From Candidatus Saccharimonadota bacterium (lineage in GTDB: Bacteria > Patescibacteriota > Saccharimonadia > Saccharimonadales > Saccharimonadaceae): a stretch of DNA of 62,534 nt. The stretch is from positions 1-62,534 of the forward strand of contig JABCOL020000001.1 of NCBI GenBank assembly GCA_013333625.2. The letters run 5' to 3'. Of this stretch, positions 54-54,061 are shown piece by piece (position 1 is the stretch's first letter; every line of letters begins with the position of its first letter). The notes under the pieces are model-generated. The model had not been told where the DNA came from and did no database searches. It saw nothing but the letters and a program-made list of their open reading frames with translations. The position numbers were made by a program, and so were the translations under genes.

Positions 54-125
54 TAAAATTTGCAAATTTTACGAAATAATTGCGAAAAGTATTGACTTCG
101 CAGTCCATATGTGATATATATATAT
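54..125 (+). promoter_or_regulatory. Cassette A promoter with upstream 18-bp palindrome
   Basis: TAAAATTTGCAAATTTTA 54-71; TTGACT 92-97, 17-bp spacer, TG-A-TATATA 112-120; same geometry in copies B and C. Confidence 0.7.
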
Positions 126-133
126 TAGCTTTT

Positions 134-183
134 CGCTCAAGTCATCACAAACAAAGGGCGAGAAGTGCCCTTTTACTTGAGCG
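134..183 (+). ncRNA. Structured 5' leader, copy A
   Basis: CGCTCAAGT 134-142 pairs ACTTGAGCG 175-183; AAAGGGC 153-159 pairs GCCCTTT 167-173; loop GAGAAGT; 10-nt 5' bulge. Confidence 0.7.
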
Positions 184-199
184 TGATTCTGGAGGAATC

Positions 200-616
200 A
201 TGAAGAGCTTTTTTGTTCACATCGTCGAGTTTCTTGCGCTGTTCGCCGCGGGTATCGCGGCCAGCCAGCTCATCAAGGGAGGACACCCCGCACTCTGGGT
301 GAGCATTCTCGTTATCTACGCGGGCATCATGTTGATGCGGCTCTGGTTTTCGAGAGTGGATCTCTCCATTAACAAGACACAGAAAGAGCTCCTGGAGGGG
401 CGTTTGACCACCGTGACGGCGCAGATGCGCCGGCTCGAGCTCGCACTCGTGGAGGCCTCCGTCGAGACCCTCTGGGTCTCGAGTGTTACTGAGGACGATG
501 ACGAAACCGTCTATGTAATCGAAACACCTAATCACGGGTGTTTCGTCATCATGACTCCAGCCGACAACGCCACCAAGAATGACAAGGACGCCCCCGCGGC
601 GCCCAACAAGGGCTAA
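200..616 (+). CDS. Hypothetical membrane protein, 138 aa, two N-terminal hydrophobic helices (cassette A cargo)
   Basis: GGAGG 191-195 before ATG 200; in frame with ORF 80..616; 10 of 15 Leu codons are CTC. Confidence 0.8.
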   Translation: MKSFFVHIVEFLALFAAGIAASQLIKGGHPALWVSILVIYAGIMLMRLWFSRVDLSINKTQKELLEGRLTTVTAQMRRLELALVEASVETLWVSSVTEDDDETVYVIETPNHGCFVIMTPADNATKNDKDAPAAPNKG

Positions 617-690
617 CCGCCCGCCTGAAAATAGCCCGCCTAGAGGCCACCAGCCTCGGCGCAAGGCCTTTCTGGCGGGCTATTTTCTTT
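617..690 (+). terminator. Cassette A 3' structure, probably also terminating convergent dnaE
   Basis: GAAAATAGCCCGCC 627-640 pairs GGCGGGCTATTTTC 674-687; inner hairpin GAGGC/GCCTC 643-657; T-rich tail. Confidence 0.75.
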
Positions 691-40338: not shown

Positions 40339-40905
40339 ATGACAACCAAACTTCTAGAGATCGAGCACAAAAGACGCTTAACTAGCAACATCGAAGATTT
40401 TATTAAAAAGCTGGAAAAGTTCGGTTTTGAACTGCAGAGTAATCTCCGCGAAATTGATACGTATTATTCTCGTTCTGATGTAGATTTTATGCAGACGGTT
40501 GAATGTTTGCGGATTCGCCAGCGCGATGGTTTTGCTGAGGTGACATATAAGCCTGCGACGACTGCTGCGACACATACAGAGAATGATGTGATCATTAAGC
40601 CCGAGACAAACCTGCCAATTCAACCCGGAGACGCGGCAATCGCCAAACAACTGCTCGCCAACCTAGGCATGGTGCGGCTAGTCGAGGTCAACAAATACCG
40701 TCGCTCGTTCCAGTCCTCTGATTTTCCGCAGGCAACGGTGGCCATAGACGAAATCAAAGATGCTGGCACGTTCGTGGAAGTTGAGGTTTTGTCAGATGAT
40801 GAGACCAGTGCGCTGGCGATGATTAGTGAAATTGAAACCAAACTCGGACTTGAGTCGACAGAAGTTGTCACGCGGCCTTATCGGGATATTTGTATGGGAC
40901 TGTAG
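40339..40905 (+). CDS. CYTH domain protein (class IV adenylate cyclase-like)
   Basis: EIEHK (ExExK), DTYY, LRIR, VTYK, FVEVE. Confidence 0.88.
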   Translation: MTTKLLEIEHKRRLTSNIEDFIKKLEKFGFELQSNLREIDTYYSRSDVDFMQTVECLRIRQRDGFAEVTYKPATTAATHTENDVIIKPETNLPIQPGDAAIAKQLLANLGMVRLVEVNKYRRSFQSSDFPQATVAIDEIKDAGTFVEVEVLSDDETSALAMISEIETKLGLESTEVVTRPYRDICMGL

Positions 40906-41052
40906 CGTCACCTGCCTAGCTGACCAACAAGAAATGATACGTGGACGTTGATTATTTTTATTTCAGTATAGGCAAAAACGAGAGTAAATATACAGTTTGT
41001 TGGTTTAATCTATGTTCTAATAAAAATCTTCTTTGTCAAAAGACGCTAATGG

Positions 41053-41086
41053 TTGACATATTCTATTCTATTCTATTCTATATCAT
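41053..41086 (+). promoter_or_regulatory. Promoter with (TATTC)4 tract in the spacer
   Basis: TTGACA 41053-41058, (TATTC)4 41059-41078, TATCAT 41081-41086. Confidence 0.55.
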
Positions 41087-41134
41087 ACACTCTAGGCTGA
41101 GATGCAGCCATCCTTGAGTAGACAGGAGATGATC

Positions 41135-41344
41135 ATGCCGAACCGGCGCGATCTGAACGACATCGCCAGCTACCTCGTCCCTAACCCTGGCGACGAAGCG
41201 TGGGTTGTCGACCCCAACCAGCCTGAGCACATGCACCACGGCCAGACCTCTGGCGAACCGCACTCCGACGGGTACTACATGTACAACGAGGGCACGCCGA
41301 GCTGGCTGAAGTACCACTCCGACGACAAGGAGGACGAGGAGTGA
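41135..41344 (+). CDS. Small acidic His-rich hypothetical protein, 69 aa (divergent cassette D cargo)
   Basis: AGGAG before ATG 41135; only 8 of 69 codons end in A/T, inside an AT-rich neighbourhood. Confidence 0.75.
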   Translation: MPNRRDLNDIASYLVPNPGDEAWVVDPNQPEHMHHGQTSGEPHSDGYYMYNEGTPSWLKYHSDDKEDEE

Positions 41345-41360
41345 GATAGTCCTCGAGGAT

Positions 41361-41386
41361 GCCCCTCTCCACATCCAGAGAGGGGC
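41361..41386 (+). terminator. GC-rich 3' hairpin after ORF D
   Basis: GCCCCTCTC 41361-41369 pairs GAGAGGGGC 41378-41386; weak U-tract. Confidence 0.55.
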
Positions 41387-41414
41387 CATTCCCTGAATTA
41401 TATATAATATAGTC

Positions 41415-41708
41415 ATGAACTACGATAGATATCTAGAATTACAAACCCGTCTTGAATGGTTTTATGATTTTCATCCAGAGTTTTTTGATGATATTCTGCC
41501 TGAGCAGAAGAAGTTACTACAGGATACATTCCTATACGACACACCTGATGAGAGCTATCCGGAATCATTACAAGATTTTTATGATAAGAACATTGATAAT
41601 CGACCAACGCTTCAGGATGATATGTTTTTGGCAGTGGATGCCTTATATAAAGCAGCAGGGGCTAGTAGTCTGTTTGACGATAATGGATATCGTTCCCTTG
41701 CTGAATAG
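41415..41708 (+). CDS. Hypothetical acidic protein
   Basis: 97-aa ORF; TATAAT 6 nt before ATG; AT-rich codons. Confidence 0.7.
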   Translation: MNYDRYLELQTRLEWFYDFHPEFFDDILPEQKKLLQDTFLYDTPDESYPESLQDFYDKNIDNRPTLQDDMFLAVDALYKAAGASSLFDDNGYRSLAE

Positions 41709-41778
41709 ATTTTACTCTATGAAATCTGTATAGGTTATAAAACTGTATACTTTTCTTGATATAATTTAAGATTATTGT

Positions 41779-41957
41779 ATGAATAATTATCTAGCAAAGA
41801 ATTGAAACAGATACCCGACGAATATCAATTTGCACAACTCATCAAGCCATATATCAATGAACCAGTACGCTTAAGTTTGCCAAGCGACTACACTTTTGTA
41901 TCAGACCCAAAGAATTATTATCGTCATTGTTTGGCAATAGTCAGTCATAAAGAATAG
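41779..41957 (+). pseudogene. Possible frameshifted gene fragment
   Basis: ATG 41779 stops after 8 codons; a 1-nt shift continues about 52 codons (ELKQIPDEY...HKE*). Confidence 0.3.
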
Positions 41958-41979
41958 TTGTCTAACCTGTAGCTTAGAA

Positions 41980-43020
41980 TTAAAACTGCCTCAAAAAATC
42001 CAACTTACCGCTCTCAAAATGCCGCACATCCTCGATGCCGTATTTCATCATCACCAGCCGGTCGATGCCGCAGCCAAAAGCAAAGCCCGTGTATTCGTTC
42101 GGATCGATGTCAGCAGCTTTCAGCACGTTCGGATGAATCATGCCGCAGCCCAGCAACTCAATCCAGCCTTCGCCCGAACAGACTTTACAATCCGGATTTT
42201 TACCTTCGCAGAATGGGCAGCTCAGCGCGAATTCAAAGCTCGGTTCGGTGAACGGGAAATAAAATGGATTGACGCGCACATCCAGTTTCTTACCATAATA
42301 TTCCTGCAAAAATTCTTGCAGCGTCGCGATCAGATTGCCGACATTAACTCCCTTGGCGACATACACACCCTCGACTTGATAGAACGTGTGCTCGTGCCGC
42401 GCGTCCAAATCTTCGTTACGAAACACTCGGTCAGGTACGATGGCGGCGATCGCCTCGCCCTTTTCCAAATTGCCATGATATTTTTTCAGCACGCGGTTTT
42501 GCATGGTCGAGGTGTGCGCCGGCGCAATTAAACGGTCGCCGTTAGCGTCAGTCTCTTCGGTCATGAACGTGTCATAATCATCACGTGCTGGGTGACCCTT
42601 CGGGAAGTTCAAGCTCTCGAACATATGGAATTGATCGTCGATTTCACGCGACTCTTCCGTCACAAAGCTCATACGATTAAAAATGTCAGAAATGCGATCA
42701 ATCTCGGCACTCAGCGGGTGGATCGTACCCTGCTCGCTCGGCAGCAAATCAGGTTGCGGCGCATTGATATCCATCGGTGCCGTCACGTCGATTGGCGGCA
42801 AATCGACTTTATCGAGCTCCTGGCGGCGAACTTCTATGACCACCTCCAACGATTTTTTCAGCTCGTTGACGCGCTTGCCGAAAGCGCCGCGCTCATCGCT
42901 TGGCAAAGTCTTGATGTGGTCGTATAGCGCTTTGATTTCTGGAGCGCGCAATACTTCTTGCGGGTGGTTAGACTGAGCCGCCCGCGCTGATAAAACTTGT
43001 AAAACTTTCTCGAAATCCAT
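41980..43020 (-). CDS. pheS: Phenylalanine--tRNA ligase alpha subunit
   Basis: HPARD, HTSTMQ, FYQVEG, YFPFTEPS, GFAFGCGIDR. Confidence 0.97.
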   Translation of the reverse strand: MDFEKVLQVLSARAAQSNHPQEVLRAPEIKALYDHIKTLPSDERGAFGKRVNELKKSLEVVIEVRRQELDKVDLPPIDVTAPMDINAPQPDLLPSEQGTIHPLSAEIDRISDIFNRMSFVTEESREIDDQFHMFESLNFPKGHPARDDYDTFMTEETDANGDRLIAPAHTSTMQNRVLKKYHGNLEKGEAIAAIVPDRVFRNEDLDARHEHTFYQVEGVYVAKGVNVGNLIATLQEFLQEYYGKKLDVRVNPFYFPFTEPSFEFALSCPFCEGKNPDCKVCSGEGWIELLGCGMIHPNVLKAADIDPNEYTGFAFGCGIDRLVMMKYGIEDVRHFESGKLDFLRQF

Positions 43021-43027
43021 CGCTAAC

Positions 43028-43282
43028 CTACTTATTCACCTGATATACGAATAACACAAATACGCCAACTGCCATCAACACAATAAACACCCAAGCTGGC
43101 GCTAGAGTTGTCGTAGCCTTGGTGCCTTTCAAATATTCTGAGTTCTCGATTAGCTCGCCGCTAACACCCGGAACTGGCTCGCCTTCTTGCTTTGCCTTCT
43201 GCGCTGCTTTTTCACGCAAGTCGGCAGCGATGCGCTGTTGCAGTTCGCTGCGGCTTTCTGTCTGTTCAAAATAACGTCCCAT
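43028..43282 (-). CDS. Small protein with C-terminal TM helix
   Basis: 84-aa ORF; TATAAT 6 nt upstream; hydrophobic C-terminus. Confidence 0.7.
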   Translation of the reverse strand: MGRYFEQTESRSELQQRIAADLREKAAQKAKQEGEPVPGVSGELIENSEYLKGTKATTTLAPAWVFIVLMAVGVFVLFVYQVNK

Positions 43283-43364
43283 ATCATCATTATAACAGAT
43301 GTATACAACCCAAAATATTTTTGTGTTATACTATGTCTATATTTCAGTAAAGGAGGGAATATTC

Positions 43365-44306
43365 ATGGCTACTAAAAAAGCCGCTTCTACCAAGAAGAAG
43401 ACGACCGCCAAGAAAACGGCCGCCAGCAAGACGACTGTTCGTACAGTATCTGCCGAAAAAGTAGAAGCACCAAAGAAGGAAACTGCCGCTGCCAAACCTA
43501 CGACAACCAAACGCAGCAGCGTCAAGCTTCCATCAAATATCATAAATATAATCTTTGCCGAACTAATCGGTACGTTCGTATTGACGCTGGTTGCTTTGAC
43601 CACATTCAAAGACGGCGGCGTTGGCGCGCTAGCTGTCGGCTTCACGCTAGTAATGCTAGTGATGAGCATCGGCGCTGTCTCGGGCTCGCACGTCAACCCA
43701 GCCGTAACGTTTGGTTTGTGGACAATGCGCAAGCTCAAGACAATTCTGTTGCCGTTCTACTGGGGCGCTCAGTTCATCGGCGCTATGCTGGCTGTAATCG
43801 TCACCAACTGGGTTACTGGTGGCTCGATCAACTTCGGCTTTAGCGGATTTAGCAGCATGAACTGGTCGATATTCGGCATTGAGCTGGTCGGCACCGCTAT
43901 CTTCCTATTCGGACTAGCAGCAGTTCTATCGCGCGAAGAATCTTGCAATACTGGCAAGGCGCTCGGCGTTGGCTTGGCACTGGCAGTCGGTATTTTGACA
44001 TCTGGCTATTTGTTATCGACCGCCAAGACGCAGGCAATCGCCGATTACCAAAGCAAAGCAGCATCTTCAGCTTCTAATAAAGTCGAGATTCCTCACGTCG
44101 CTTACGTCAAGGGCGCTAGCCTTAACCCGGCTGTTGCACTAGCAATGACTGATTCGACCGAAAAGGAGCTCACTACTGGTTCAGCTGGCTCTAACGAAGT
44201 TGTCAATTCGCGCTTCTCGCTTGAGTCGCTAGTTGGCGCTTTAGCAGGCGCAGCTGTCGGCGCCAACCTCTACGTGTTGGTTGCTGGCCGGCAAAAGAAA
44301 GACTAA
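43365..44306 (+). CDS. MIP/aquaporin-family channel with Lys/Ala/Thr-rich N-terminus
   Basis: AELIGTF, SGSHVNPAVT, GASLNPA; AAGGAGG before ATG 43365. Confidence 0.88.
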   Translation: MATKKAASTKKKTTAKKTAASKTTVRTVSAEKVEAPKKETAAAKPTTTKRSSVKLPSNIINIIFAELIGTFVLTLVALTTFKDGGVGALAVGFTLVMLVMSIGAVSGSHVNPAVTFGLWTMRKLKTILLPFYWGAQFIGAMLAVIVTNWVTGGSINFGFSGFSSMNWSIFGIELVGTAIFLFGLAAVLSREESCNTGKALGVGLALAVGILTSGYLLSTAKTQAIADYQSKAASSASNKVEIPHVAYVKGASLNPAVALAMTDSTEKELTTGSAGSNEVVNSRFSLESLVGALAGAAVGANLYVLVAGRQKKD

Positions 44307-44323
44307 GCCTAACTTTCTCAACA

Positions 44324-44353
44324 AAAATATCCCGTCTATCGGCGGGATATTTT
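44324..44353. terminator. Bidirectional intrinsic terminator
   Basis: AAAATATCCCGTC-TATC-GGCGGGATATTTT between convergent genes. Confidence 0.8.
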
Positions 44354-44368
44354 GATAGTCAAAAATCT

Positions 44369-45445
44369 TTACTTCTTATCAATAGATGACGGACGATCAA
44401 GCGCCAATACTTCGACGGAAGAATCGCTACCAGCAATCTTCACCACGTCTTTATCAACTTTACCGAGCTCTTTATGAGCGTTGTTATAATGATTGACCGT
44501 CGTGCCGAGACTATTGCCTAGCTTCTGCATGTACTCTTCAAATTTGGCGATATGCTGTCCGAGCTTGCCGACACGAACTTGAATATCCTTAGCCTGCTCC
44601 TCAATCTGCAAACTGCGCAAGCCTTGCAATACCGTTTGCAAATACGCCATAAAACTAGTCGGACTAGTAATAATCACGTGCTTCTCGCGAAAAGCATACT
44701 CAATCAGATCGCGCGAGCTGCCGCCCTGGCCAACGTTATTGATCAGTAAATCATAATACAACGACTCGCTGGGAATAAACATAAATGCGAAATCCATAGT
44801 ATGCTCGCTCGGACGAATATATTTGCTGGTTTCGTCGATGCGCCCTTTCAGATCAGCTTTGACTTTTTGCATTAGCTGCTCGCGCTCTTTGCCGCTAGCT
44901 TCAATCATTCGGTTGTAATTTTCGAGGCTAAATTTGCTATCAACTGGTAGAATCTGACCCTTATCAAGAAAAATCACCGCATCAACCATTTCACCGTCGC
45001 GAAACTTATACTGAGTCTGATACTGCCCTGGCGCCAAAATATTTTCGAGAACACTCGACAAATAGTATTCGCCAAAAACACCGCGCTGCTTGGGGTTTTG
45101 TAGAACATTTTGCAAGGTTTTGAGGTCAGTCGCCACATCAACGACACGCTTGTTGGTCTCGTCGAGCTTGGTCAAGCGCTGCGTGACATCAGCCACCAAT
45201 TTTGAACTTTCACTAAGCTGCTTTTGTACCGATTGCTGAGTTGACAGCTGCGAGCGCTCGAGCTTGTCGCTCATTGTTTGCTGCAAATTAGCGATAGAAC
45301 GCGACAATTCAACAACATCGCCCTTAATCAGCTCTACCGCCGAGTTATTTTGCACTCGCTTCAGCTGCTGCATCAACACAAAAATAACCACGCTAGCCGC
45401 TGCGACGACTATCGCTAAAATTATAAGCAAAACCATTATTTCCAT
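44369..45445 (-). CDS. rmuC: DNA recombination protein RmuC
   Basis: N-terminal TM, coiled coil, RGVFGE, VDSKFS, FAFMFIPSE. Confidence 0.92.
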   Translation of the reverse strand: MEIMVLLIILAIVVAAASVVIFVLMQQLKRVQNNSAVELIKGDVVELSRSIANLQQTMSDKLERSQLSTQQSVQKQLSESSKLVADVTQRLTKLDETNKRVVDVATDLKTLQNVLQNPKQRGVFGEYYLSSVLENILAPGQYQTQYKFRDGEMVDAVIFLDKGQILPVDSKFSLENYNRMIEASGKEREQLMQKVKADLKGRIDETSKYIRPSEHTMDFAFMFIPSESLYYDLLINNVGQGGSSRDLIEYAFREKHVIITSPTSFMAYLQTVLQGLRSLQIEEQAKDIQVRVGKLGQHIAKFEEYMQKLGNSLGTTVNHYNNAHKELGKVDKDVVKIAGSDSSVEVLALDRPSSIDKK

Positions 45446-45481
45446 ATAACTAGCATACCGCAAATAACGGTTCTGCGCCAG

Positions 45482-45988
45482 CTACCCGGCGATAATCAGC
45501 CGAGCCGCTACAATCAGCACAATCGATACAACCAAGTAGAGTATAAACGACCGCAATCGCGCCAGCCAAGTAAACATCGCATATGTCAACGCACCAATCA
45601 CCGTCATCGCCGCCATCGCCCAATACCACGGCAATAGCGCTAAATACGATTGCAGACCCCATAGAGCCGCTATCGAAGCAATAACGATAAATAACGGCCG
45701 GTAAATTCGCGCCTGCGACAACAGTATCAACCCGCCGATTGACACCAAAGTTACCGAAAAAATTGCTACATACAGCGGCGCATTCTGGCATAAATCATTA
45801 TCGCCGCGGCACATCACCGCCGACGCGACCCGGCCAACCAAAATATACAACACCGTTAGTATTGCACCGGCGAACGCTCCATAGATAGCAGCTCGAATGA
45901 TGTCCTTTTTGTCCATCGGAATAAACGGCTCCAGCTTCACCGCTGCAGTCTCGTTTGCGTTGTTCATAGGTTTCTCCACATTAGTCAT
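45482..45988 (-). CDS. Hypothetical integral membrane protein
   Basis: About 5 hydrophobic helices; co-oriented in gene run. Confidence 0.72.
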   Translation of the reverse strand: MTNVEKPMNNANETAAVKLEPFIPMDKKDIIRAAIYGAFAGAILTVLYILVGRVASAVMCRGDNDLCQNAPLYVAIFSVTLVSIGGLILLSQARIYRPLFIVIASIAALWGLQSYLALLPWYWAMAAMTVIGALTYAMFTWLARLRSFILYLVVSIVLIVAARLIIAG

Positions 45989-45997
45989 CTTACTGAG

Positions 45998-46498
45998 TTA
46001 TTTTACTACATTCTTGCGTTTTTTGCTAGATGCAAGCTTAGCATTAGGCCGATCCACGTACCACAACGCCCCCAAGCAAGCCACCGCCATGCCGCCGACA
46101 ACATCAAGCGGCGTATGCACCAGCGCTAATATTCTGCCAACGCCGACTAGCAGCGCCATAGTTAGCATAATTATAGTAATCGAGCGGCGACGCAGTGCAT
46201 ACCAGACCGCCAGCACCAAAAACATCGCAAAAAGCGCGTGATCCGACGGAAATCCCGGATTATTCAGATAAGCCGCCCCTGGGTTAACGCCAAGCAGCTC
46301 AAACGGACGCAACTGTTCAGGCTGATATATTAGCCCAAGGATTTTAGCAGCCACATAAGACGTCAGCCCGGCCATCAGCACGCGAGAATATATTTCATAG
46401 CGGCGCCTAGCTTCAACCTTAAAAAATAACTCATACAAAGCCAGCAATACTAATGGAATCAGCAGCCAGTCGGCGATTATCTTAACCAGCCAAGCCAC
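45998..46498 (-). CDS. PAP2-family phosphatase
   Basis: RP, FPSDH, GRILALVHTPLDV motifs. Confidence 0.88.
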   Translation of the reverse strand: MAWLVKIIADWLLIPLVLLALYELFFKVEARRRYEIYSRVLMAGLTSYVAAKILGLIYQPEQLRPFELLGVNPGAAYLNNPGFPSDHALFAMFLVLAVWYALRRRSITIIMLTMALLVGVGRILALVHTPLDVVGGMAVACLGALWYVDRPNAKLASSKKRKNVVK

Positions 46499-46499
46499 C

Positions 46500-47813
46500 T
46501 TATCGTTGCAGCTCCTCGACTAGTTGCTGGCGGGGAATGGGCTTATTCTCACCGGTTGCCATATCCTTCACTGTCGCGAAACGGCCGCGTACTTCTTCCT
46601 CGCCAATCAAGACTACCAACGGTATACCAAGACGATCAGCATAGCGCAGCTTCTTTTTTAACGGCACCGATTCGGTATTGAGGATTGTCGCCACGCCAGC
46701 TCGCCGCAGCTCGGCAACTATTTGCAGCGCCTCGCCGAATTGTGCATCATCAAAGGCCGCCACCATACAGCGTGCCAACGTCTGGCGATGGCTAGACACG
46801 CCGCCTGCCTCGCGCAGTTTGTAGAATAAGCGCGATAAACCAATCGACACGCCAACTCCCGGCAGACGCGTCCGCGTATAGTTCTCGGCCAAGTTATCGT
46901 AGCGTCCGCCCGAGCAAACACTACCAACTTCTGGATAATCATCAAGCGTCGTTTCGTAGACTACGCCAGTATAATAATCCAGTCCGCGCGCAATCCGTAG
47001 GTCTAACTGAATACGCTGCTCTGGCAAGCCCATGTTTCGCAGCATCGCCAGCAACTCGCGTAATTTTGCCGTGCCAAGCGCGAAATCATCAGAATTGATC
47101 TCGTTTTTCATTGACTCTAGCTGCGATAAAATCTCGTCGTTGCTGCCGCTAATCTCTGTGAAGGCAACAACTTGCAAGACTTGCTTTTCGCTAAGGCCCA
47201 GCTCGCGTAATTCCGCCATAAAATCTTGGCGCGATATTTTCTCGATTTTATCGACTACTCGCAGTACATCCGCCGACACATCGGCCAAACCAATTCCAGC
47301 GAAAAAGCCGTTCAACACCAAGCGATTATTGATGTGAATCGTGAACTCGCCGAAAGCAAACTGCTCAAAAATATCGTTAATTACCGCTGGAAACTCCGCA
47401 TCAGCCGCCACGCTTTCCGAACCAATCACATCAATGTCGCACTGGTAGAATTCGCGGAAACGCCCGGCTTGAGCTCGCTCGGCGCGGTGCACTTTGCCAA
47501 TCTGGTAACGCCGGAACGGAAAAACCAGCTGGCCTTCATGTTCGGCGACATAGCGCGCCAGCGGCACCGTTAGATCAAAACGCAAGCTCAAATCATTCCT
47601 GCCGCGTTCGAACCGATAGATTTGTTTCTCGGTTTCGCCGCCGCCTTTCGCCAACAACACCTCACTCAGCTCAATATCTGGCGTGTCCAGCGGCGCGTAG
47701 CCATAGCGCTCATAAGTTTCGCGAATAATGTCGCGCAAACGATTAAACTCTATTTGGTCGCCTGGCAGGTATTCGCTGAAACCGCTCGGAATACGGGGAG
47801 TAGTTGTCTTCAT
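46500..47813 (-). CDS. hisS: Histidine--tRNA ligase
   Basis: LRFDLTVPLAR, GRFREFYQCD, RGLDYYTG, GGRYD. Confidence 0.97.
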   Translation of the reverse strand: MKTTTPRIPSGFSEYLPGDQIEFNRLRDIIRETYERYGYAPLDTPDIELSEVLLAKGGGETEKQIYRFERGRNDLSLRFDLTVPLARYVAEHEGQLVFPFRRYQIGKVHRAERAQAGRFREFYQCDIDVIGSESVAADAEFPAVINDIFEQFAFGEFTIHINNRLVLNGFFAGIGLADVSADVLRVVDKIEKISRQDFMAELRELGLSEKQVLQVVAFTEISGSNDEILSQLESMKNEINSDDFALGTAKLRELLAMLRNMGLPEQRIQLDLRIARGLDYYTGVVYETTLDDYPEVGSVCSGGRYDNLAENYTRTRLPGVGVSIGLSRLFYKLREAGGVSSHRQTLARCMVAAFDDAQFGEALQIVAELRRAGVATILNTESVPLKKKLRYADRLGIPLVVLIGEEEVRGRFATVKDMATGENKPIPRQQLVEELQR

Positions 47814-47825
47814 ATCATTATTTCT

Positions 47826-47900
47826 TGGCTGGGGTGGAGGGATTCGAACCCCCGCATGCTGGGACCAGAACCCAGTGCCTTACCACTTGGCGACACCCCA
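47826..47900 (-). tRNA. tRNA-Gln (anticodon CTG), CCA encoded
   Basis: TGGGGTG/CACCCCA acceptor stem, CTGGG-TTCTGGT-CCCAG anticodon arm, GTTCGAATC T-loop. Confidence 0.95.
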
Positions 47901-47933
47901 TCGCGCCTACCTTAATATATCACTAGAGCGACG

Positions 47934-48392
47934 TTATTTCAAATTTAGCCGCCGCAGTTTAGCAGTCAAATACGCCGCAGCTGCTAGCCACACGCCAGCC
48001 AGCGGCAGACTAGCCACCCCCGGCAGCGCCGCTACCGCGCCAAACAAACTAACTTTTCCCTGTCCGCCGCTCATCAGTACAGCCGCGCTAATCGCCAGCC
48101 AAACGCCAGGCGCTAGCAATGTGCACGCACCTGATATTCGCCTCTCCAACTTGCTCAACCGCGGCATAGACAACAAAAATGGCAAAGAAATAAATTCTAG
48201 CAGAACTATAGCAATCGCAGCGATAATGCCGTAGCCAATCCCCAGCGACTCTAGAGTTTTTGGAAATTTCTCGAACCTAAACAATTGCGCCAACATTATA
48301 ATAATAGTCCAGAAACCTACTGCCAGCGCCGCATATTGCGCGCGCTTCTTGAAAATTGTTGGCGGAAAAATACTAGCTATAAACTGTTTCAT
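47934..48392 (-). CDS. Hypothetical membrane protein
   Basis: Four hydrophobic segments; start uncertain (48392 or 48416). Confidence 0.65.
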   Translation of the reverse strand: MKQFIASIFPPTIFKKRAQYAALAVGFWTIIIMLAQLFRFEKFPKTLESLGIGYGIIAAIAIVLLEFISLPFLLSMPRLSKLERRISGACTLLAPGVWLAISAAVLMSGGQGKVSLFGAVAALPGVASLPLAGVWLAAAAYLTAKLRRLNLK

Positions 48393-48481
48393 ATTATTAG
48401 CATAGCATTTTTCCACACGATTTTTTATTTTTTGTCCAAAAAATGCTTGCTATTAAGCACAAAAACGTATATTGTATAAAT

Positions 48482-48585
48482 AGCGAAGTTACAAAAACAA
48501 ACACAAAAATGTATCGATCGCTCTCCGATAAATCCACCACAACAATGAAATACTCCTCTGCCTTGGCGAGGAGTATTTTGTTTCC
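48482..48585 (+). ncRNA. Candidate orphan small RNA
   Basis: TTGCTA 48447-48452, 17 bp, TATTGT 48470-48475; AGCGA/TCGCT stem with A/C-rich loop; terminator 48548-48578. Confidence 0.4.
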
Positions 48586-48633
48586 TAGTTTAGTTGACGC
48601 TAGCTGGGCCTGCCCAGCACTGGCAAAATCGCT

Positions 48634-49290
48634 TTATTCCCCAGCCTTTTTGCTGTGCGCTGCCCGCCATTTAGCGATTTTGCCATGATGTCCGCTAAGT
48701 AGCACTTCTGGCACGCGCAAACCTTGCCATTCCTCGGGCCGGGTGTATTGCGGGTATTCTAGCGTTTCGCCGTCGCTGAAGCTCTCAATCGCTGCGCTGT
48801 TTTCGCCGCCGAGTACGCCAGGGATTAACCGCACAATCGAATCAATAATCGTCATCGCTGGCAATTCGCCGCCAGTTAGCACATAATCGCCAATACTAAG
48901 CTCTTGATCAACCAGCGCCATAATTCGCTCGTCGTAGCCCTCGTAGCGCCCGCAGATTACAATATAACCATCTTCGCTTTCGCTGTATTGCTGCGCCAAC
49001 GCCTGCCGCCAACGCTGGCCGCGCGGTGTCATGATTAAGACTTTAGCGCCAGGGTCAATCTGTTTAGCCTGCTGCACCGCATTCCATAGCGGCTCGACCA
49101 TCAGCAGCATACCATCGCCGCCGCCGTACGGCGTATCGTCGACCGTCCGGCGCGGGCCTAATCCAAACTGACGCAGATCAATCGTCGAGAGCTCAACATA
49201 GCCGTCTTTTTGCGCTTTCCACATCATCGAACTGCCGAACACGCCAGCGAACATTTCTGGGAATAAGGTAATCACCTGAATTTTTCTCAT
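48634..49290 (-). CDS. trmD: tRNA (guanine-N1)-methyltransferase
   Basis: VDDTPYGGGDGM, CGRYEGYDER, SIGDYVLTGGE, YPQYTRP. Confidence 0.97.
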   Translation of the reverse strand: MRKIQVITLFPEMFAGVFGSSMMWKAQKDGYVELSTIDLRQFGLGPRRTVDDTPYGGGDGMLLMVEPLWNAVQQAKQIDPGAKVLIMTPRGQRWRQALAQQYSESEDGYIVICGRYEGYDERIMALVDQELSIGDYVLTGGELPAMTIIDSIVRLIPGVLGGENSAAIESFSDGETLEYPQYTRPEEWQGLRVPEVLLSGHHGKIAKWRAAHSKKAGE

Positions 49291-49344
49291 CTGTTATAGT
49301 GTAGCAAGTCTTGACACGGATGTCTATCTGTGATATATATCAAC

Positions 49345-49393
49345 TTTTGCTCAAGGTAGTCTAGGGCGGAAGTCGCCCTTGCTTTGAGCAAAG
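49345..49393 (+). ncRNA. Structured 5' leader, copy B
   Basis: TTTTGCTCAAGGTA 49345-49358 pairs TGCTTTGAGCAAAG 49380-49393; AGGGCG/CGCCCT with loop GAAGT; 4-nt bulge. Confidence 0.72.
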
Positions 49394-49406
49394 AGAGGAG
49401 ACGGTC

Positions 49407-49577
49407 ATGAAGACCGTTACCGCCGCCGTCGCCCCTGACCCCGAGCCCACCGCTATCGAGCGTGCGCGTTTGCGCGCGCTTGATAACTACATCAAGGCCA
49501 AGCAGAAGGGGCGAATGTTCCGCGCGGCCTTTTGGGCCGGGGCCTTCTCAGGCCTGGGCGGCCTGAGAAGCAACTGA
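49407..49577 (+). CDS. 56-aa basic peptide MKTVTAAVAPDPEPTAIERARLRALDNYIKAKQKGRMFRAAFWAGAFSGLGGLRSN (cassette B cargo; absent from ORF track)
   Basis: Manual translation; GAGGAG 6 nt before ATG; fills the space between the conserved 5' and 3' elements. Confidence 0.78.
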   Translation: MKTVTAAVAPDPEPTAIERARLRALDNYIKAKQKGRMFRAAFWAGAFSGLGGLRSN

Positions 49578-49700
49578 GCCCACCGAAAATAGCTCGCTGA
49601 AAACTACTGTTCAATCCGGTTCGAGACGCACATTCCTGCGTTTCCTGGGTTGAATACCCAGTTTCCAGCTTGAGCACGTTTTCGGCGGGCTATTTTCATG
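49578..49700 (+). ncRNA. Cassette B extended 3' structure
   Basis: GAAAATAGCTCGCTGAAAAC 49585-49604 pairs GTTTTCGGCGGGCTATTTTC 49678-49697; inner helices TTCAATCCGG/CTGGGTTGAA and GAGACGCA/TGCGTTTC; non-Watson-Crick positions in these helices are G.U. Confidence 0.75.
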
Positions 49701-49876
49701 TCTTGCAATAATTTGCTACAATCTAGATTTTATTGCATAATAGTATTTGACTTATATTACGTTATATTTTATCTATATATTTGTGCTTTTACAAAAATAG
49801 TTGTATAGCCTCAATTGACACGTTTGGCTTTTCGTGTAATAAATTATGCCTGGCCTTCTCGAAATTTCGCCCCAAC

Positions 49877-49903
49877 AAAAAAACCGCCTAAAAAGACGGC
49901 TTT
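49877..49903 (-). terminator. Intrinsic terminator of rpsP-khpA
   Basis: Minus strand AGCCGTCT-TTTT-AGGCGGTT followed by a U-tract. Confidence 0.75.
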
Positions 49904-50006
49904 CTTGCACAAATAAGTCTCTCAAACCATTTGTAGGTTTGCTCGCAGTAGAGCTTTTGTACTTTGTTTTCGTTAGTTCAGGGTTCTCGCATGAACTTAC
50001 TTATGA

Positions 50007-50414
50007 TTATATATCAAGGTCGTCTAGTTCTGCAAGCTCTTGGCGCGACTTTTTTGCGAAATCGCTTTCGGTTTCTGCGTTTTCTGGGTCATTTTCCACA
50101 GAATCACTAGTAGTGTTTTCCACATCATTATCCACTACAGCCGAATCGGCGTCCTCGCGCTCGTCATTATTGACGATTTTCAGGTTGTAATGAGCGGTAT
50201 TTTTAGCACCCAACGCCCGCAGCAGCGTGCGCAGGCCTTGCGCGGTCGAGCCGCGGCGGCCAATCACCCGGCCCAAGTCTTCTGGATTGACAGTTAGCGT
50301 CAGCAAAACACCCTTCTCGTCGACAATCCGGTCAACAACCACATCATCTGGATGTCCTACTAGTGATTTTACGATATATTCGACAAATTCCTGGTCAATG
50401 GTCGACATGCCCAC
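50007..50414 (-). CDS. khpA: KH-domain RNA-binding protein with acidic tail
   Basis: VEYIVKSLVGHP, DLGRVIGRRG (GxxG); directly downstream of rpsP. Confidence 0.88.
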   Translation of the reverse strand: MGMSTIDQEFVEYIVKSLVGHPDDVVVDRIVDEKGVLLTLTVNPEDLGRVIGRRGSTAQGLRTLLRALGAKNTAHYNLKIVNNDEREDADSAVVDNDVENTTSDSVENDPENAETESDFAKKSRQELAELDDLDI

Positions 50415-50538
50415 GGTATCTCCTCCTTTGCGGTCACACGGTTACTATCGTACTTTTATTGTAACATGCTTTTGCTATGAAATCGAAAAACGCGCTCCAG
50501 CCATACAGTTAGAGCGCGCTAGTTCGTGATTAAAAGCG

Positions 50539-50901
50539 TTAGGCTTCAGCTGGAGCTTCTGCCTCTTCGGCAGCTGGCTCTTCTTTTGGCTGATTCTTGC
50601 GCAACTTTTCAGCATTCTTGACCGCTTTAGTCTTGCCGCCCTGGAACTCTTTAACCCATTTCGGCAGCTTGACACCAGCTTCTTTTAGCAACTTCGCAAC
50701 GCGCGGCGTCGGTTGAGCGCCGTTATCAAGGTATTTTTGAGCAGCCTCGACATTGATATTAGCGTCTTTGGTGTGCGGGTTGTAGCTGCCGACATAAGCG
50801 ACCACGCGGCCGCTCGATGGATGGCGCTGTGCTTCCTGGACGGCGACGCGGTATACCGGATAAGCCTTGCGGCCCAAACGTTGCAAACGAATTGCGAGCA
50901 T
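50539..50901 (-). CDS. rpsP: 30S ribosomal protein S16
   Basis: MLAIRLQRLGRK...YRVAV...GSYNP...GAQPT. Confidence 0.97.
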   Translation of the reverse strand: MLAIRLQRLGRKAYPVYRVAVQEAQRHPSSGRVVAYVGSYNPHTKDANINVEAAQKYLDNGAQPTPRVAKLLKEAGVKLPKWVKEFQGGKTKAVKNAEKLRKNQPKEEPAAEEAEAPAEA

Positions 50902-51170
50902 AAAATTAAAACTTCCTTTACTTCACGTTAGTACTATTGTTACTTCTGTCATATTCTAGCGTGTTACAGGTAAAATGTCAACAAAGCGCCTAAGCCGCCG
51001 CTTAGACGCCTTTTCGTTCAAGTCTAGCCTATTAACCAATTCAGGCAGAAAACACCGCTAGAGGGCGCAAAAACGGCCAAAACGGCTCAAAAACACTTAA
51101 AATTTGCAATTTTTGCGAAATAATTGCGAAAATCGTTGACATGGTGATTCATATGTGATATATATATATC

Positions 51171-51233
51171 AGCTTTTCGCTCAGAGTTACCGAAAAAGGA
51201 GCGAAAAGTCGCTCTTTTTGCTCTGTGGAAGCT
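51171..51233 (+). ncRNA. Structured 5' leader, copy C
   Basis: AGCTT/AAGCT, CAGAG/CTCTG and AAAAGGAGCGA/TCGCTCTTTTT helices; loop AAAG. Confidence 0.7.
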
Positions 51234-51248
51234 GGAAAGGAGAACGCG

Positions 51249-51497
51249 ATGGATGTCATCGTCGTCTCACTGCCTCTCATAGGAAGGTTCGCCTTTATCC
51301 CCGACAGAGATGTGCAGCTGGCTCTCAGCAACATGTCTGCGGAAGAGAAGCGAGTCGTTCTCGCTAACATGGAGAGACAGACAGCCTCTCTCCTGGCGCT
51401 CCAGTGTGCCGCCATCTTCGCCCCCGACATGTCGATCTCCAAGAGCATCGACTCTGGGTTGTACATCGCCAGTCAGATGGTGAAGATCAACTCCTAG
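51249..51497 (+). CDS. Hypothetical 82-aa protein (cassette C cargo)
   Basis: AAGGAG 6 nt before ATG 51249; codons biased to CTC/ATC/AAG/CAG. Confidence 0.78.
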   Translation: MDVIVVSLPLIGRFAFIPDRDVQLALSNMSAEEKRVVLANMERQTASLLALQCAAIFAPDMSISKSIDSGLYIASQMVKINS

Positions 51498-51500
51498 TGT

Positions 51501-51570
51501 CGAGCCCGCCGAAAATAGCTCGCTAGAGGTTTAAAACCTCAGCGCGGCCCTCTGGCGGGCTATTTTCTTT
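51501..51570 (+). terminator. Cassette C 3' structure, probably also terminating convergent rnc
   Basis: GAAAATAGCTCGCTAGAGG 51511-51529 pairs CCTCTGGCGGGCTATTTTC 51549-51567; alternative inner hairpin GAGGTT/AACCTC. Confidence 0.75.
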
Positions 51571-51576
51571 GGTTTT

Positions 51577-52287
51577 TTATTGCCGCTTTCTATACTCTTC
51601 CAGCGCTGCCCGGGCGGCTTGCTGCTGGGCGGTTTGTTTGCTAGGGCCGATGCCTTTACCCATCAGTTTGTCGCCGACATAAGCGCCGAGCGTGAAGACC
51701 TTGTCGTGGTCTGGGCCGTCTTCGGCGATGACTTTGTAGACTGGCGTAGCGCCGTCGACGCGCTGGCTGATTTCTTGCAGATGGCTTTTGGGGTCGCGCC
51801 AAGAGCCGCTCTCTAAAATCCCGTCAAGCTTACTGATTGTGTGCTTCTCGATAAAGGCCGCCGCGGCATCATAACCGCGCTCCAAATAAATCGAACCGAT
51901 CACTGCTTCGTAAGCATTGGCTAGAATCTGATGGCGCGCCCGCTCGGAACCATGCTTCTCGCCGCGGCTCATCCGCACCAATGGCTCATAACCAAGCTCT
52001 TCGCCAGATTTAGCGTTGCTAGTGGTGTTAACTAGCGCCGCCCGCCAGCTAGTCAGGATTCCTTCCGGCTCGCTATAATGTTTATATAAATAATCCGTCA
52101 CCACCAGCTCTAGCACGGCGTCGCCCAGAAATTCTAAACGCTCATTGTGCTCGCTCACCGATTTTTTGTGCTCGTTGACATAGCTGCGATGCGTCAAAGC
52201 AGTAATCAGAAGCTGAATGTCTTTATATTCAAAACCTAATTTCTGCTTCGCCCAATCTTGGTACGGCCCGGTTGGCATACCGCTCAT
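51577..52287 (-). CDS. rnc: Ribonuclease III
   Basis: ALTHRS, NERLEFLGDAVL, dsRBD DPKSHLQE. Confidence 0.97.
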   Translation of the reverse strand: MSGMPTGPYQDWAKQKLGFEYKDIQLLITALTHRSYVNEHKKSVSEHNERLEFLGDAVLELVVTDYLYKHYSEPEGILTSWRAALVNTTSNAKSGEELGYEPLVRMSRGEKHGSERARHQILANAYEAVIGSIYLERGYDAAAAFIEKHTISKLDGILESGSWRDPKSHLQEISQRVDGATPVYKVIAEDGPDHDKVFTLGAYVGDKLMGKGIGPSKQTAQQQAARAALEEYRKRQ

Positions 52288-52314
52288 CTTTCCTCCTTTT
52301 CGTATTTTGTAAGT

Positions 52315-52824
52315 TTATAAGTTTTCTTGGCGGATCCGCGTTTTAGCTTTCAGCATTAGCTTGGCGATGTCTTCGTATTCGATCAGCTCGAGCGCCTCGT
52401 TGAACGGGAACCATTTGATACCTTTCATCCAATCCTCTTTCTGGATTTCATCGCCGCTGGTACGAATGCGCACCAAATAAATTTGCGTCGTCATCAAAAC
52501 GAGCTTATCGAGGCGGCGATATCGGAAATGAATCTTGCCCAGCCAGCCTAGCATATCGACGTCGTGCAGGCCAGCTTCCTCGCCAATTTCGCGGCGAGCA
52601 GTCTGCACGGCTGTCTCGCCCTCCTCGATATGGCCTTTGGGAATTGTCCAACGGTCTTTGGCATCCTGAATCAGTAAAATCTCGATACCCGACTCGCCGT
52701 GGCGGAAAATCACGCCGCCGCTAGTCGGCTCGCGGACGATTTCTTGGATAGACGCCGAACGCGACTTTGTTAAATATTTGCGTATATGATCAAACTTGCT
52801 TTTGTTGGCCTTCGGCTTTGGCAT
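52315..52824 (-). CDS. NUDIX hydrolase
   Basis: Nudix box GHIEEGETAVQTARREIGEEAG; start at MPKPK. Confidence 0.9.
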   Translation of the reverse strand: MPKPKANKSKFDHIRKYLTKSRSASIQEIVREPTSGGVIFRHGESGIEILLIQDAKDRWTIPKGHIEEGETAVQTARREIGEEAGLHDVDMLGWLGKIHFRYRRLDKLVLMTTQIYLVRIRTSGDEIQKEDWMKGIKWFPFNEALELIEYEDIAKLMLKAKTRIRQENL

Positions 52825-53266
52825 TATCTGACCCTTCCTCGACAAATTTGCGATAAGCAGTACCCAGTACGCCGTTAACAAACTTGCTCGAATTATCAGA
52901 ACCAAACGCTTTGGCTAGCTCAATCGCTTCGTTGATGGCGACGCGCGGCGGCACAGTATCTTGATGGTGCAGTAATTCGTACAGGCCAATCCGCAAGATT
53001 GCCCTGTCGATCCGTGCTATCTGCGTAATCGGCCACTCGGGCGCAATCGGTTGCAGCCGCCGATCAAGCTCCTCCTGCTGGCTAACAACACCGCTAGCCA
53101 GTCCTTCTACGAAAGCGATGTCGTCAATCGCCGAACGGTAACGCTCGACATCGCGCTTCAAGATATCATCTAACGCGGCACTGTTGTCGCCAGACTGCCG
53201 GCGCAATTCCAATTCGTATAGCGCTTGCAGCGCAACAATCCGACCAAGGTGTCTATTCGATGCCAT
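52790..53266 (-). CDS. nusB: Transcription antitermination factor NusB
   Basis: ALQALYE, IDRAILRIG, AINEAIELAKAFG...FVNGVL. Confidence 0.95.
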   Translation of the reverse strand: MASNRHLGRIVALQALYELELRRQSGDNSAALDDILKRDVERYRSAIDDIAFVEGLASGVVSQQEELDRRLQPIAPEWPITQIARIDRAILRIGLYELLHHQDTVPPRVAINEAIELAKAFGSDNSSKFVNGVLGTAYRKFVEEGSDNAKAEGQQKQV

Positions 53267-53312
53267 TCGCGTTTGTTTCCTTTTATTATCTCACCGTTTT
53301 TGTTTGAAACGG

Positions 53313-53459
53313 TTATTTCTGCTTGGTTGATGATTTTTTCTTGCCAATCAACACTTTTACTGGCGAATGGCCATTAACGCGCTTGGCTAACTTCTCGACA
53401 AGATGGCTGCGACGCATGCCGGTCTTGCGAGGACTTGATTGTTTCTTTGGCTGTGCCAT
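53313..53459 (-). CDS. rpmF: 50S ribosomal protein L32, short Cys-free form (48 aa; absent from ORF track)
   Basis: Manual translation MAQPKKQSSPRKTGMRRSHLVEKLAKRV...; AAGGAG RBS; upstream of nusB and rnc. Confidence 0.85.
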   Translation of the reverse strand: MAQPKKQSSPRKTGMRRSHLVEKLAKRVNGHSPVKVLIGKKKSSTKQK

Positions 53460-53561
53460 GAAATGTTCTCCTTCTCGGTTTGTATAAACTTAGTAGTATT
53501 ATACGCTAAAGCGAGGCTTTTCTCAAGTATTTGACATTGTAGTGTTATCGTATTTTAATTA

Positions 53562-53590
53562 TTGACTTTTTATATCGGTTATGCTATAAT
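53562..53590 (+). promoter_or_regulatory. Near-consensus sigma70 promoter, leaderless geometry
   Basis: TTGACT 53562-53567, 17 bp, TG-C-TATAAT ending 53590; ATG 6 nt later. Confidence 0.8.
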
Positions 53591-53596
53591 AGAAGT

Positions 53597-54061
53597 ATGA
53601 GTCATGAACAAAACGTTGGTAAATCCGAGAAATTAATTACTACTGCCGCTGCCATAGGTTTGAGCGCAGCAGCGTTAACAGGCTGCGGCGTCGGCGACTA
53701 CGGAGCCAGTAGTGCCGAAACCTCCAACCCAGCAGCTGTAGCCGAGCAGAAAGCTGTCGAGCTGGTCGACGAATATAGCGAACACCCCGAGAAATTCGAT
53801 GAATCGGCGATTGTCCGCGTAGAGGTTCCAGAAGGTAGTAGCGTTAATGGAGCGGCTACCGCCTATGTTGATCAATACGGACAAGAGCAAGGCTGGACGG
53901 GCCCGCAGCGCGATTTAGGACACGGCATTGTCAATGAGGCTGCCGCCGAAATCAGCGGCGTACCACACCCAGGCGCAGAAGTAATCATGTATCATGTCGA
54001 TCTGAACGGTGACGGCACCGTCGATGTTACGCCCGTTGGCGTCGAAAATCCAACAAAGTAA
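53597..54061 (+). CDS. Putative lipoprotein, acidic, with DxNxDG motif
   Basis: Ala-rich h-region, lipobox LTGC; DLNGDGTVD near C-terminus. Confidence 0.7.
   Translation: MSHEQNVGKSEKLITTAAAIGLSAAALTGCGVGDYGASSAETSNPAAVAEQKAVELVDEYSEHPEKFDESAIVRVEVPEGSSVNGAATAYVDQYGQEQGWTGPQRDLGHGIVNEAAAEISGVPHPGAEVIMYHVDLNGDGTVDVTPVGVENPTK

Follow-up and report, generated by a model that had tools for sequence, protein, structure and literature searches.

Dispersed cassettes with foreign codon usage and conserved RNA structure in a Saccharibacteria genome: candidate messages for the actinobacterial host

Introduction

The Saccharibacteria obtained in culture grow on Actinobacteria, according to the available parts of PMC10633639 and PMC7651992. 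Control of the host by Patescibacteria and the cargo of their essential type IV secretion system (T4SS), which has no relaxase, are named as open questions in the accessible sections of PMC11665869 and PMC12857230. The system is described as essential, relaxase-free and without a known substrate in the parts available of PMC10633639 and PMC12102498.

The DNA analysed here (the window, a stretch of 62,534 nucleotides with about 50% GC) contains dnaE, trmD, rpsP, rnc, and other housekeeping genes, with names read from the translations; the T4SS locus lies outside it, and the nearest relative among the compared genomes is G001. Between these genes stand four short ORFs (A, B, C, and D) with a codon usage different from that of their neighbours, which raises the question of whose ribosomes are supposed to read them. 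An earlier note on this DNA had interpreted them as cargo with “Actinobacteria-like” codons, transcribed by the epibiont but tuned to, or recently taken from, a high-GC host or its phages. As described below, this interpretation is partly supported.

Such cassettes were not found in the literature searched, where the results were taxon-heavy and subscription journals were outside the scope, and no description of them appears in the available parts of 10.1101/2023.05.02.539146, PMC10633639, PMC11665869, PMC12102498, PMC12857230, PMC13293708, PMC5737381, PMC7651992, 10.1101/2022.03.25.485537, and 10.64898/2026.06.21.733656. The same literature returned nothing relevant for hammerhead or other ribozymes in combination with Saccharibacteria or Patescibacteria.

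Genomes and ORF Sets

From 92 loci of related genomes together with the window 116 promoter matches were obtained, leading to 99 ORF calls, which were reduced to 86 by a filter of E ≤ 0.07 and removal of duplicates; the doubtful L031 and L040 were then dropped. The final cargo set comprises 69 ORFs of this clade (the window and seven genomes, without G006) and 15 ORFs of a sister clade. Four loci (L031, L078, L085, and L067) have the promoter and the leader start without a convincing ORF, being possibly non-coding or decayed cassettes. Contamination or chimeric assembly as the source of the cassettes was rejected, because the same cassette sites are occupied in several genomes.

Codon Usage of the Four ORFs

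The counts given in the earlier note proved to be exact: over the four ORFs 15/16 Lys codons are AAG and 10/10 Gln codons are CAG, TTA and CTA account for 0/31 Leu codons, and CTC for 10/15 of those in ORF A. The neighbours differ as claimed, with 42% AAG, 55% CAG, and 27% TTA+CTA in the 53 native window genes, where GC3 is 0.30–0.64 versus 0.75–0.88 in the four cargo ORFs. The probability of such counts by chance is 2e-5 (Lys), 2e-3 (Gln), and 5e-5 (Leu) under native frequencies and 1e-4, 1e-3, and 1e-4, respectively, under ribosomal-protein frequencies, values which are overstated because the codons were chosen after being seen; the bias is replicated in the wider 69-ORF clade set (AAG 86%, CAG 89%, and TTA 1%).

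When the 332 Met-start window ORFs of at least 28 aa were ranked by cargo-versus-native likelihood, D, C, B, and A were four of the top five, and the remaining one was an antisense ORF inside A. The cargo model was trained on cargo of related genomes without the window, but the training set contains orthologues of A, C, and D, so the model is not fully independent of the window. The per-codon score was +0.26 to +0.44 for the window cargo, -0.37 to -0.15 for native genes, and -0.41 to +0.02 for 17 ribosomal-protein and tuf genes, which were taken from the relative G017 (the only long ribosomal-protein gene of the window is rpsP); CAI on the ribosomal reference was 0.53 for the window cargo versus 0.73. 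A profile within the range of highly expressed genes, which according to the earlier note would speak against its reading, was thus not observed, the cargo lying outside both the native and the ribosomal-protein/tuf ranges, and the explanation of the cargo as highly expressed native genes was rejected on this codon usage.

Several observations were made beside the cassettes. The monocistronic gene at 53562-54061 of the window has a near-consensus promoter and native codons (GC3 0.50), so a strong promoter alone does not give the cargo profile. In G001 a 172-aa ORF located after rpsH (L093:11070-11740) has cargo-like codons (AAG 8/8, CAG 6/6, GC3 0.85), a folded coding sequence (z -3.3), its own promoter-like site without the shared promoter, and a short leader hairpin whose loop is similar, and this ORF is absent from the same site in G009 and G017. 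The stretches L141:900-1400, L095:19400-19870, and L142:1100-1540, rich in purine and pyrimidine runs, follow a probable tRNA, look cargo-like in several frames, and are possibly non-coding RNA.

Architecture of the Cassettes

Cassettes A, C, and D have the same order of parts: a promoter-like site, a conserved transcript start, a two-helix hairpin, a Shine-Dalgarno sequence (SD), and the ORF, after which the 3′ end forms a long, branched hairpin with a U tract (Table 1). The earlier treatment of the four ORFs as one cassette class therefore holds for A, C, and D and fails for B, which has the same codon profile but other flanks and no shared promoter or leader upstream, the matches of leader model R2 in the window being A, C, and D only. 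Tandem TATTC repeats lie at 41059-41084, between the -35 hexamer and the leader of B.

Table 1: Coordinates of cassette features in the window.
Feature	Positions	Strand	Description
Cassette A promoter-like site	92..120	+	-35 hexamer at 92-97, spacing of 17 nt, AT run preceded by TG, with TATATA at 115-120
Cassette A 5′ leader	127..199	+	Conserved start, two-helix hairpin 134-183, SD 191-195; fold z -3.6
Cargo A	200..616	+	138 aa; mosaic alleles
Cassette A 3′ branched hairpin and U tract	617..690	+	Convergent with dnaE; fold z -5.0
ORF B upstream region	41053..41134	+	-35 hexamer 41053-41058, hairpin 41095-41109, SD 41124-41128
ORF B	41135..41344	+	69 aa (71 aa if started at 41129); codon profile as in the other cargo
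ORF B 3′ hairpin	41345..41395	+	Fold z -2.8
Cassette C promoter-like site	49311..49339	+	Divergent from trmD
Cassette C 5′ leader hairpin and SD	49342..49406	+	Fold and R2 match
Cargo C	49407..49577	+	56 aa, basic; same-site alleles share 36-57% identity
Cassette C 3′ multi-branched hairpin	49578..49697	+	Two alternative left arms; fold z -8.4
Cassette D promoter-like site	51136..51164	+	Divergent from rpsP
Cassette D 5′ leader hairpin and SD	51171..51248	+	Fold and R2 match
Cargo D	51249..51497	+	82 aa; other cargo at this site in G012 and G019
Cassette D 3′ hairpin and U tract	51498..51570	+	Convergent with rnc; fold z -3.8

The promoter-like site of cassette A is common to C and D (families D1/D2) and to about 80 cassettes in relatives. 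In all three cassettes 17 nt separate the -35 hexamer from an AT run preceded by TG. The -10 hexamers of A, C, and D end in A, where the consensus has T, and C and D were missed by a consensus promoter scan of 40900-53700 because the scan demanded T as the last base of this hexamer. Between copies the run of AT dinucleotides in the -10 region (112-126, 49331-49341, and 51156-51170) differs in length, a variation that could allow slipped-strand tuning.

Across genomes the promoter and leader of A match 19 of the 25 genomes of the same genus, eight of them with 9–14 matches, and 0/16 genomes of other families. The leader hairpin, aligned over 42 leaders, has 96% of cells paired with 46 two-sided changes; none of 500 shuffles was as high and slid controls reached 25–50%, in a covariation test which is inflated by the relatedness of the leaders. 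Leader model R2, with which leader A scores 68 bits, replaced model R1, whose consensus structure was poor. The leader model matches only 6/101 genomes of the family, including four complete cassettes in another genus, and this leader class is consequently not universal. The window leader and 3′ hairpin match no Rfam family, and the Rfam scan over the window returned only two tRNAs plus two chance matches. The 3′ hairpin is near-invariant in 5 orthologues of cassette A and conserved in 8 alleles of cassette C.

Housekeeping genes flank the cassettes, which occur alone or two together and have a promoter-like site each. The D site is empty in Southlakia ML1, since its rpsP-rnc gap is only 80 bp in the available part of PMC10633639 (Table S1). 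A 31-kb viral contig of IMG/VR (L143:1-130) ends exactly in a C-type leader with the -35 region replaced, which looks as if a prophage may integrate in the AT run of the cassette promoter.

Folding of the Messages

According to the comparison with shuffles that keep both the protein and the codon usage, 53 of 62 cargo coding sequences (12 shuffles each, ORFs over 450 nt excluded) are folded at z ≤ -2, the mean being -4.0; the first 30 cargo sequences had given a mean z of -3.8. In the sister clade the mean z is -3.0 without GC3 enrichment. Control coding sequences gave -0.7 and -1.3 (ribosomal), -0.8 and -0.7 (native), -0.6 (mycobacteriophage Theia), -1.2 (Schaalia phage xhp1), and -0.7 (actinobacterial), part of the runs (the sister clade, Theia, and some controls) being made at an 80-nt span limit. 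Within the window the folding is seen in C (z -2.1 to -3.9) and D (-1.7 to -2.9), whereas ORF A, at -0.9 to -1.9, and ORF B, at -0.2 to -1.3, show it weakly; the whole predicted transcripts reach -5.6 (A), -11.6 (C), -5.2 (D), and -4.1 (B) versus dinucleotide shuffles. Some compensatory pairs are found within coding sequences, in small alignments. A 120-nt folding scan of the window found the cassette ends, yet it is not discriminating, because many other sites were also picked (41/521 windows at z ≤ -2.5). The SD of cassette A is partly sequestered. Altogether the folding of the coding sequence and the conserved RNA ends, which the earlier note had missed, are more constant features than the codon profile.

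The enriched cargo codons come as reverse-complement pairs. Folding as the sole cause of the codon bias is nevertheless not sufficient, because the bias holds at unpaired third positions, where AAG makes 27/49 in cargo versus 19/138 in native genes and A-ending Leu codons make 12/121 versus 64/128. In addition, 32 clade cargo proteins end in Gly, often Lys-Gly (window 610-625 and many related loci), probably because the last codons pair with bases after the stop codon and form a small hairpin.

Which Organism the Codons Resemble

The codon usage of the clade cargo is closest to that of two actinophages (Schaalia phage xhp1, JS distance 0.029, and mycobacteriophage Theia, 0.030), followed by low-GC actinobacterial genes (0.036), high-GC actinobacterial genes (0.062), ribosomal genes (0.080), and native genes (0.082). 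These host-side references are proxies (two phages and Acidimicrobiia) and not an Actinomycetaceae chromosome, and they may differ from the host of this organism. The designation “Actinobacteria-like” is justified by the dominance of AAG, CAG, and GAG and by the rarity of TTA and CTA, but not by 32% AGA+AGG, 19% CTT, 32% TTT, and a synonymous GC3 of 0.71 instead of about 0.9; the two actinophage and the high-GC actinobacterial references have 6–14% AGR and 2–6% CTT, and in AGR, CTT, and TTT the cargo differs from every high-GC reference. Similarly, the proposed tuning to a high-GC host agrees with 64/69 clade ORFs, which fit an actinobacterial or actinophage reference best, but does not extend to the sister clade, where 8/15 ORFs fit native usage best. 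The sister-clade cargo (15 ORFs) has GC3 0.46–0.77 and mostly native or low-GC usage, while sharing the AGR, GGR, and TGT excess; the cargo in genus g157 has GC3 0.53–0.62.

Proline codons are the other peculiarity. CCC and CCT make up 64% of cargo Pro codons (14/18 in the window) versus 13–18% in the own genes of these bacteria, and Pro(GGG) is absent among the 45 tRNAs of G009. The Pro(GGG) gene of G015 has a 94% match in G013, while an orthologue is absent from G001, G009, G017, and G019, that is, 4/4 clade genomes, in which only paralogue matches of 81–86% were found; this argument rests on relatives that are 91–96% complete, and Pro(UGG) may read CCY. The presence of Pro(GGG) in G013 and G015 indicates that it was lost or gained within the genus. 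In G009 Arg is decoded by a GCG anticodon.

The strong SD was rejected as a sign of host translation: the anti-SD in the epibiont 16S tail is intact and the SDs of native ribosomal genes are equally strong, so the epibiont could itself translate the cassette messages. In 5/5 genus genomes (16S 3′ ends of L097-L101) the base directly before the anti-SD core is U, where C is canonical. The base after the SD core is G in 11/11 cargo leaders versus 3/15 native starts, and this G would match the C of an actinobacterial 16S tail, where the epibiont tail has U. It may be taken as a weak sign toward the host ribosome, coming from about 4 independent families.

Evolution and Homologues of the Cargo

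Same-site alleles of A and C are 36–57% identical to the window proteins, with dS 0.66–1.04 and dN 0.39–0.70, and keep the codon bias; alleles of D differ less (dS 0.22–0.25, dN 0.08–0.09), and the flanking dnaE, rnc, and trmD have dS 0.10–0.56 and dN 0.003–0.04. The dN/dS values below 1 indicate that the cargo ORFs encode real proteins. They are under weak purifying selection and are exchanged or reshuffled between fixed flanks: unrelated cargo between retained flanks occurs at the dnaE site in G009/G012 and at the rpsP-rnc site in G012/G019. ORF B has matches in 11/61 genomes of the genus, being 93–100% identical in 8/11, and is thus patchy and conserved, not hypervariable.

Homologues of cargo A form a continuous series of 45–100% identity over 40 proteins, with 19 representatives among 1.84 billion proteins, and cargo D has 99% identity with a protein whose name refers to TM7 oral taxon 346. 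Together with the L2 protein of a relative, which bears the name Ca. Saccharimonas/Nanosynbacter, this points to an oral Saccharibacteria epibiont. No match was found for A in INPHARED or IMG/VR or for D in IMG/VR, and B gave one marginal match of 21 residues in IMG/VR (E 5e-4). None of the window cargo has a Pfam or PHROG match at E ≤ 0.001, which was the only such check for C, and of the 69 cargo proteins scanned 4 have a PHROG match (one marginal), none of them from the window. Sister cargo matches PHROG 301 and PHROG 2169, and one sister cargo family is 35–37% identical to mycobacteriophage “secreted” proteins. The suggestion that the cargo was recently taken from the host or its phages is not supported by the alleles of A and C, which keep the bias at the above dS, or by the 19 representatives of A; nor did near-identical donor copies appear in the phage searches (INPHARED and IMG/VR for A, IMG/VR for B and D, and PHROGs for all), most cargo homologues being unnamed metagenome records among which donors may lie. 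On these alignments one recent transfer would not explain the cassettes.

The cargo proteins are 42–247 aa long and unrelated across sites, and 52 of the 84 have a membrane-like segment. For cargo A two N-terminal membrane helices, a long helix, and a small beta domain are predicted; its structure model is of low confidence (pLDDT 59, pTM 0.23), and its Atlas matches, which score 0.78–0.81, are within chance.

Sister Cassettes and Ribozyme-Like Ends

A second cassette class, which uses the same promoter, has longer leaders, a helix that encloses the ORF by pairing the two UTRs, and, at the 3′ end, a motif like the type III hammerhead with visible core motifs. RAGATH-10 (RF03147) is above the gathering score in 6/20 related loci, and hammerhead III (RF00008) has full-model matches in 8/20 loci at 29–42 bits, the gathering score being 48.5; the hammerhead-like motifs located 3′ of the sister cargo are therefore described as candidate ribozymes. 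In the window there is no RAGATH-10 match, and the hammerhead core has 3 matches versus 2.7 expected.

Across the order hammerhead III matches occur in 38/121 genomes, 1 of them over the cut-off, compared to 1/14 control genomes; the tally includes the unpublished G058, on which nothing else rests. Among 18 of the 20 returned loci, taken without G058 and a G001 duplicate, the upstream ORF has AAG>AAA in 13 and z ≤ -2 in 8, these ORFs being called mechanically and without backgrounds of their own genomes, and 2 of the 18 loci keep the closing helix. The order-wide extension of the cassette features to hammerhead-ended units is accordingly tentative.

One such unit in another family (G040, L152:598-1414) has two ORFs, of which the second is a free RNA polymerase alpha-CTD, while the C-terminal part of the first may be a degenerate alpha-CTD, though it gives no Pfam match. 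Among the best 80 genome matches listed for the alpha-CTD cargo 76 are titled Actinomycetota, with 57–69% identity. The PDB search of this cargo gave top bit scores of 57–62 to entries whose organisms are taken from the entry codes; as an origin test it was discarded, since it does not separate actinobacterial from other Gram-positive RpoA. Among the other hammerhead-ended ORFs L167:1005-1436, which has no Pfam match, presumably resembles an Acidimicrobiia hypothetical family, and L168 and L160 are likewise taken to resemble a TetR regulator and a phage/CPR hypothetical family. One 3′ ribozyme-like motif per unit was seen, whereas retrozymes and viroid-like RNAs have ribozymes at both ends in terminal repeats.

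Proposed Function and Alternatives

The reading put first here, held with slightly less than an even degree of belief, is that the cassette mRNAs are exported to the actinobacterial host and translated there, the folding giving a compact, nuclease-resistant product. The wider form of this proposal, in which folded, end-protected, host-coded transcripts throughout the order, either terminator- or hammerhead-ended, are delivered as mRNA effectors that include membrane proteins and mimics of host transcription (the free alpha-CTD), is entertained with the same reserve. The RNA carries the conserved features in its ends and its body, the codons ignore the maker and lean to the host side, the cargo turns over, and many products look membrane-bound; taken together, this is explained most simply by an epibiont-made message that the host would read. 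Against it stand the intact anti-SD of the epibiont, the departures from high-GC codon usage, the mostly native or low-GC usage of sister-clade cargo and the GC3 of the g157 cargo, the modest folding of A and B, the empty D site of Southlakia ML1, and the limited spread of the leader class. The cassettes would be transcribed together from epibiont promoters, the 5′ hairpin may serve as a recognition tag, and the RNA would cross into the host, for which the relaxase-less T4SS is a candidate route; host ribosomes would then make small, mostly membrane proteins that modulate the host, and an arms race could drive the cargo turnover through natural competence. Probably, membrane-like proteins would be easier to deliver as a message than as a protein.

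It is possible, though rather unlikely, that the mRNAs persist for long and are read by the epibiont's own ribosomes, for instance after storage in a host-free phase or at a slow rate, so that RNA stability is what was selected, the codon shift is mostly a by-product of folding and released translational selection, and the products work on the surface of the epibiont or leave it in protein form. Folding is common to both clades, with the sister-clade cargo folded in the absence of GC3 enrichment, the enriched codons form reverse-complement pairs, and the epibiont anti-SD is intact, all of which would agree with self-translation, but the bias that remains at unpaired positions, the frequent choice of Pro codons that lack a matching tRNA gene, and the actinobacterial-type alpha-CTD cargo of a related unit argue against it. 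An improbable alternative regards the sites as gene-capture slots, where natural competence repeatedly inserts small genes of an unsampled actinophage or host pool between conserved flanks and the codons are a moron-like signature of the donor. The best codon fit to actinophages, the PHROG and mycobacteriophage matches of sister cargo, the swapping of cargo at fixed sites, and the viral contig ending in a C-type leader would be expected from capture, unlike the outcome of the phage searches with the window cargo (none for A and D, one marginal for B, with C checked in PHROGs), the continuous homologue series of A, and the fact that phage genes are not folded like cargo coding sequences.

The folded coding sequences, the closing helix, and the hammerhead-like motifs of the sister cassettes, together with the spread of hammerhead III matches in the order, would also suit a domesticated small RNA replicon of retrozyme or viroid type, with the cassettes as integrated remnants or templates of its folded genomes with ribozymes; this is very improbable in view of the single ribozyme per unit, the lack of tandem terminal repeats, the DNA promoter outside the RNA, and the window cassettes without a ribozyme. 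Least probable of all are type I toxin-antitoxin-like or addiction loci, in which stable folded mRNAs for small membrane peptides would be silenced by structure or antisense RNA. The folded transcripts, the partly sequestered SD in A, the many small hydrophobic products, and the alternative pairing in the 3′ hairpin resemble such loci, but the size range of the cargo and its unrelatedness across sites, the absence of a match to a toxin-antitoxin family, and the foreign codons, which it leaves unexplained, speak against this origin.

The export reading gives the cassettes particular interest as a defined candidate T4SS cargo that is recognisable by its tag and belongs to a group with natural competence and workable genetics. 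If true, the passing of mRNA effectors from one bacterium to another would be a new kind of parasitism and might be turned into a means of bringing RNA into actinobacteria. Should the messages remain in the epibiont, the cassettes still contribute an RNA leader motif not yet catalogued, and RAGATH-10 and many hammerhead-like motifs obtain a genomic context. The combination of foreign codons and a folded coding sequence is also a simple signature for finding interaction genes in these genomes.

Comparison with Known Systems

Phage early and moron genes are numerous small genes, often for membrane proteins, each with a strong promoter and SD. The cassettes are like them in their small, often membrane-type genes, own promoter and SD, and few PHROG matches, but differ in being single, dispersed between housekeeping genes, and folded in the coding sequence, without a phage context or close homologue. 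The type I toxin-antitoxin mRNAs such as hok/sok combine a stable folded message with a small membrane product, whereas the cassette cargo is unrelated, larger, and swappable, has foreign codons, and comes with no identified antitoxin. Integron gene cassettes are promoterless attC ORFs collected in an array by an integrase, in contrast to the present units with their own promoter-like sites and dispersed positions.

Self-cleaving ribozymes of bacteria are known near particular genes, as stated in the available part of PMC5737381. RAGATH-10 directly precedes the SD in sister cassettes that use the same promoter, while the leader and 3′ hairpin of the window are different and match no Rfam family; a link of RAGATH-10 to Saccharibacteria, codon usage, or host delivery was not found in the literature searched, the source paper of the RAGATH motifs being outside its scope. 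With the type III hammerhead the sister cassettes share the core motifs 3′ of the cargo, at scores below the gathering score, and the motif is absent from the window.

For Saccharibacteria a role of the T4SS in altering the host has been proposed in the accessible parts of 10.1101/2022.03.25.485537 and PMC10633639. The putative protein effectors of this system are encoded inside the T4SS locus and are proposed to be delivered as proteins, whereas the conserved features of the cassettes are in the RNA. A codon complementarity between parasite and host and the uptake of host RNA for nutrition are described for Patescibacteria in the available part of 10.64898/2026.06.21.733656. Common to that system, as far as this part presents it, and to the cassettes are RNA crossing the interface and differing codon usages, but the uptake runs from host to parasite and serves nutrition, while the cassettes would run in the opposite way and for information. 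In summary, the cassettes form a genuine class that none of the families tested here accommodates, and the function judged most likely for them would be of a new kind.
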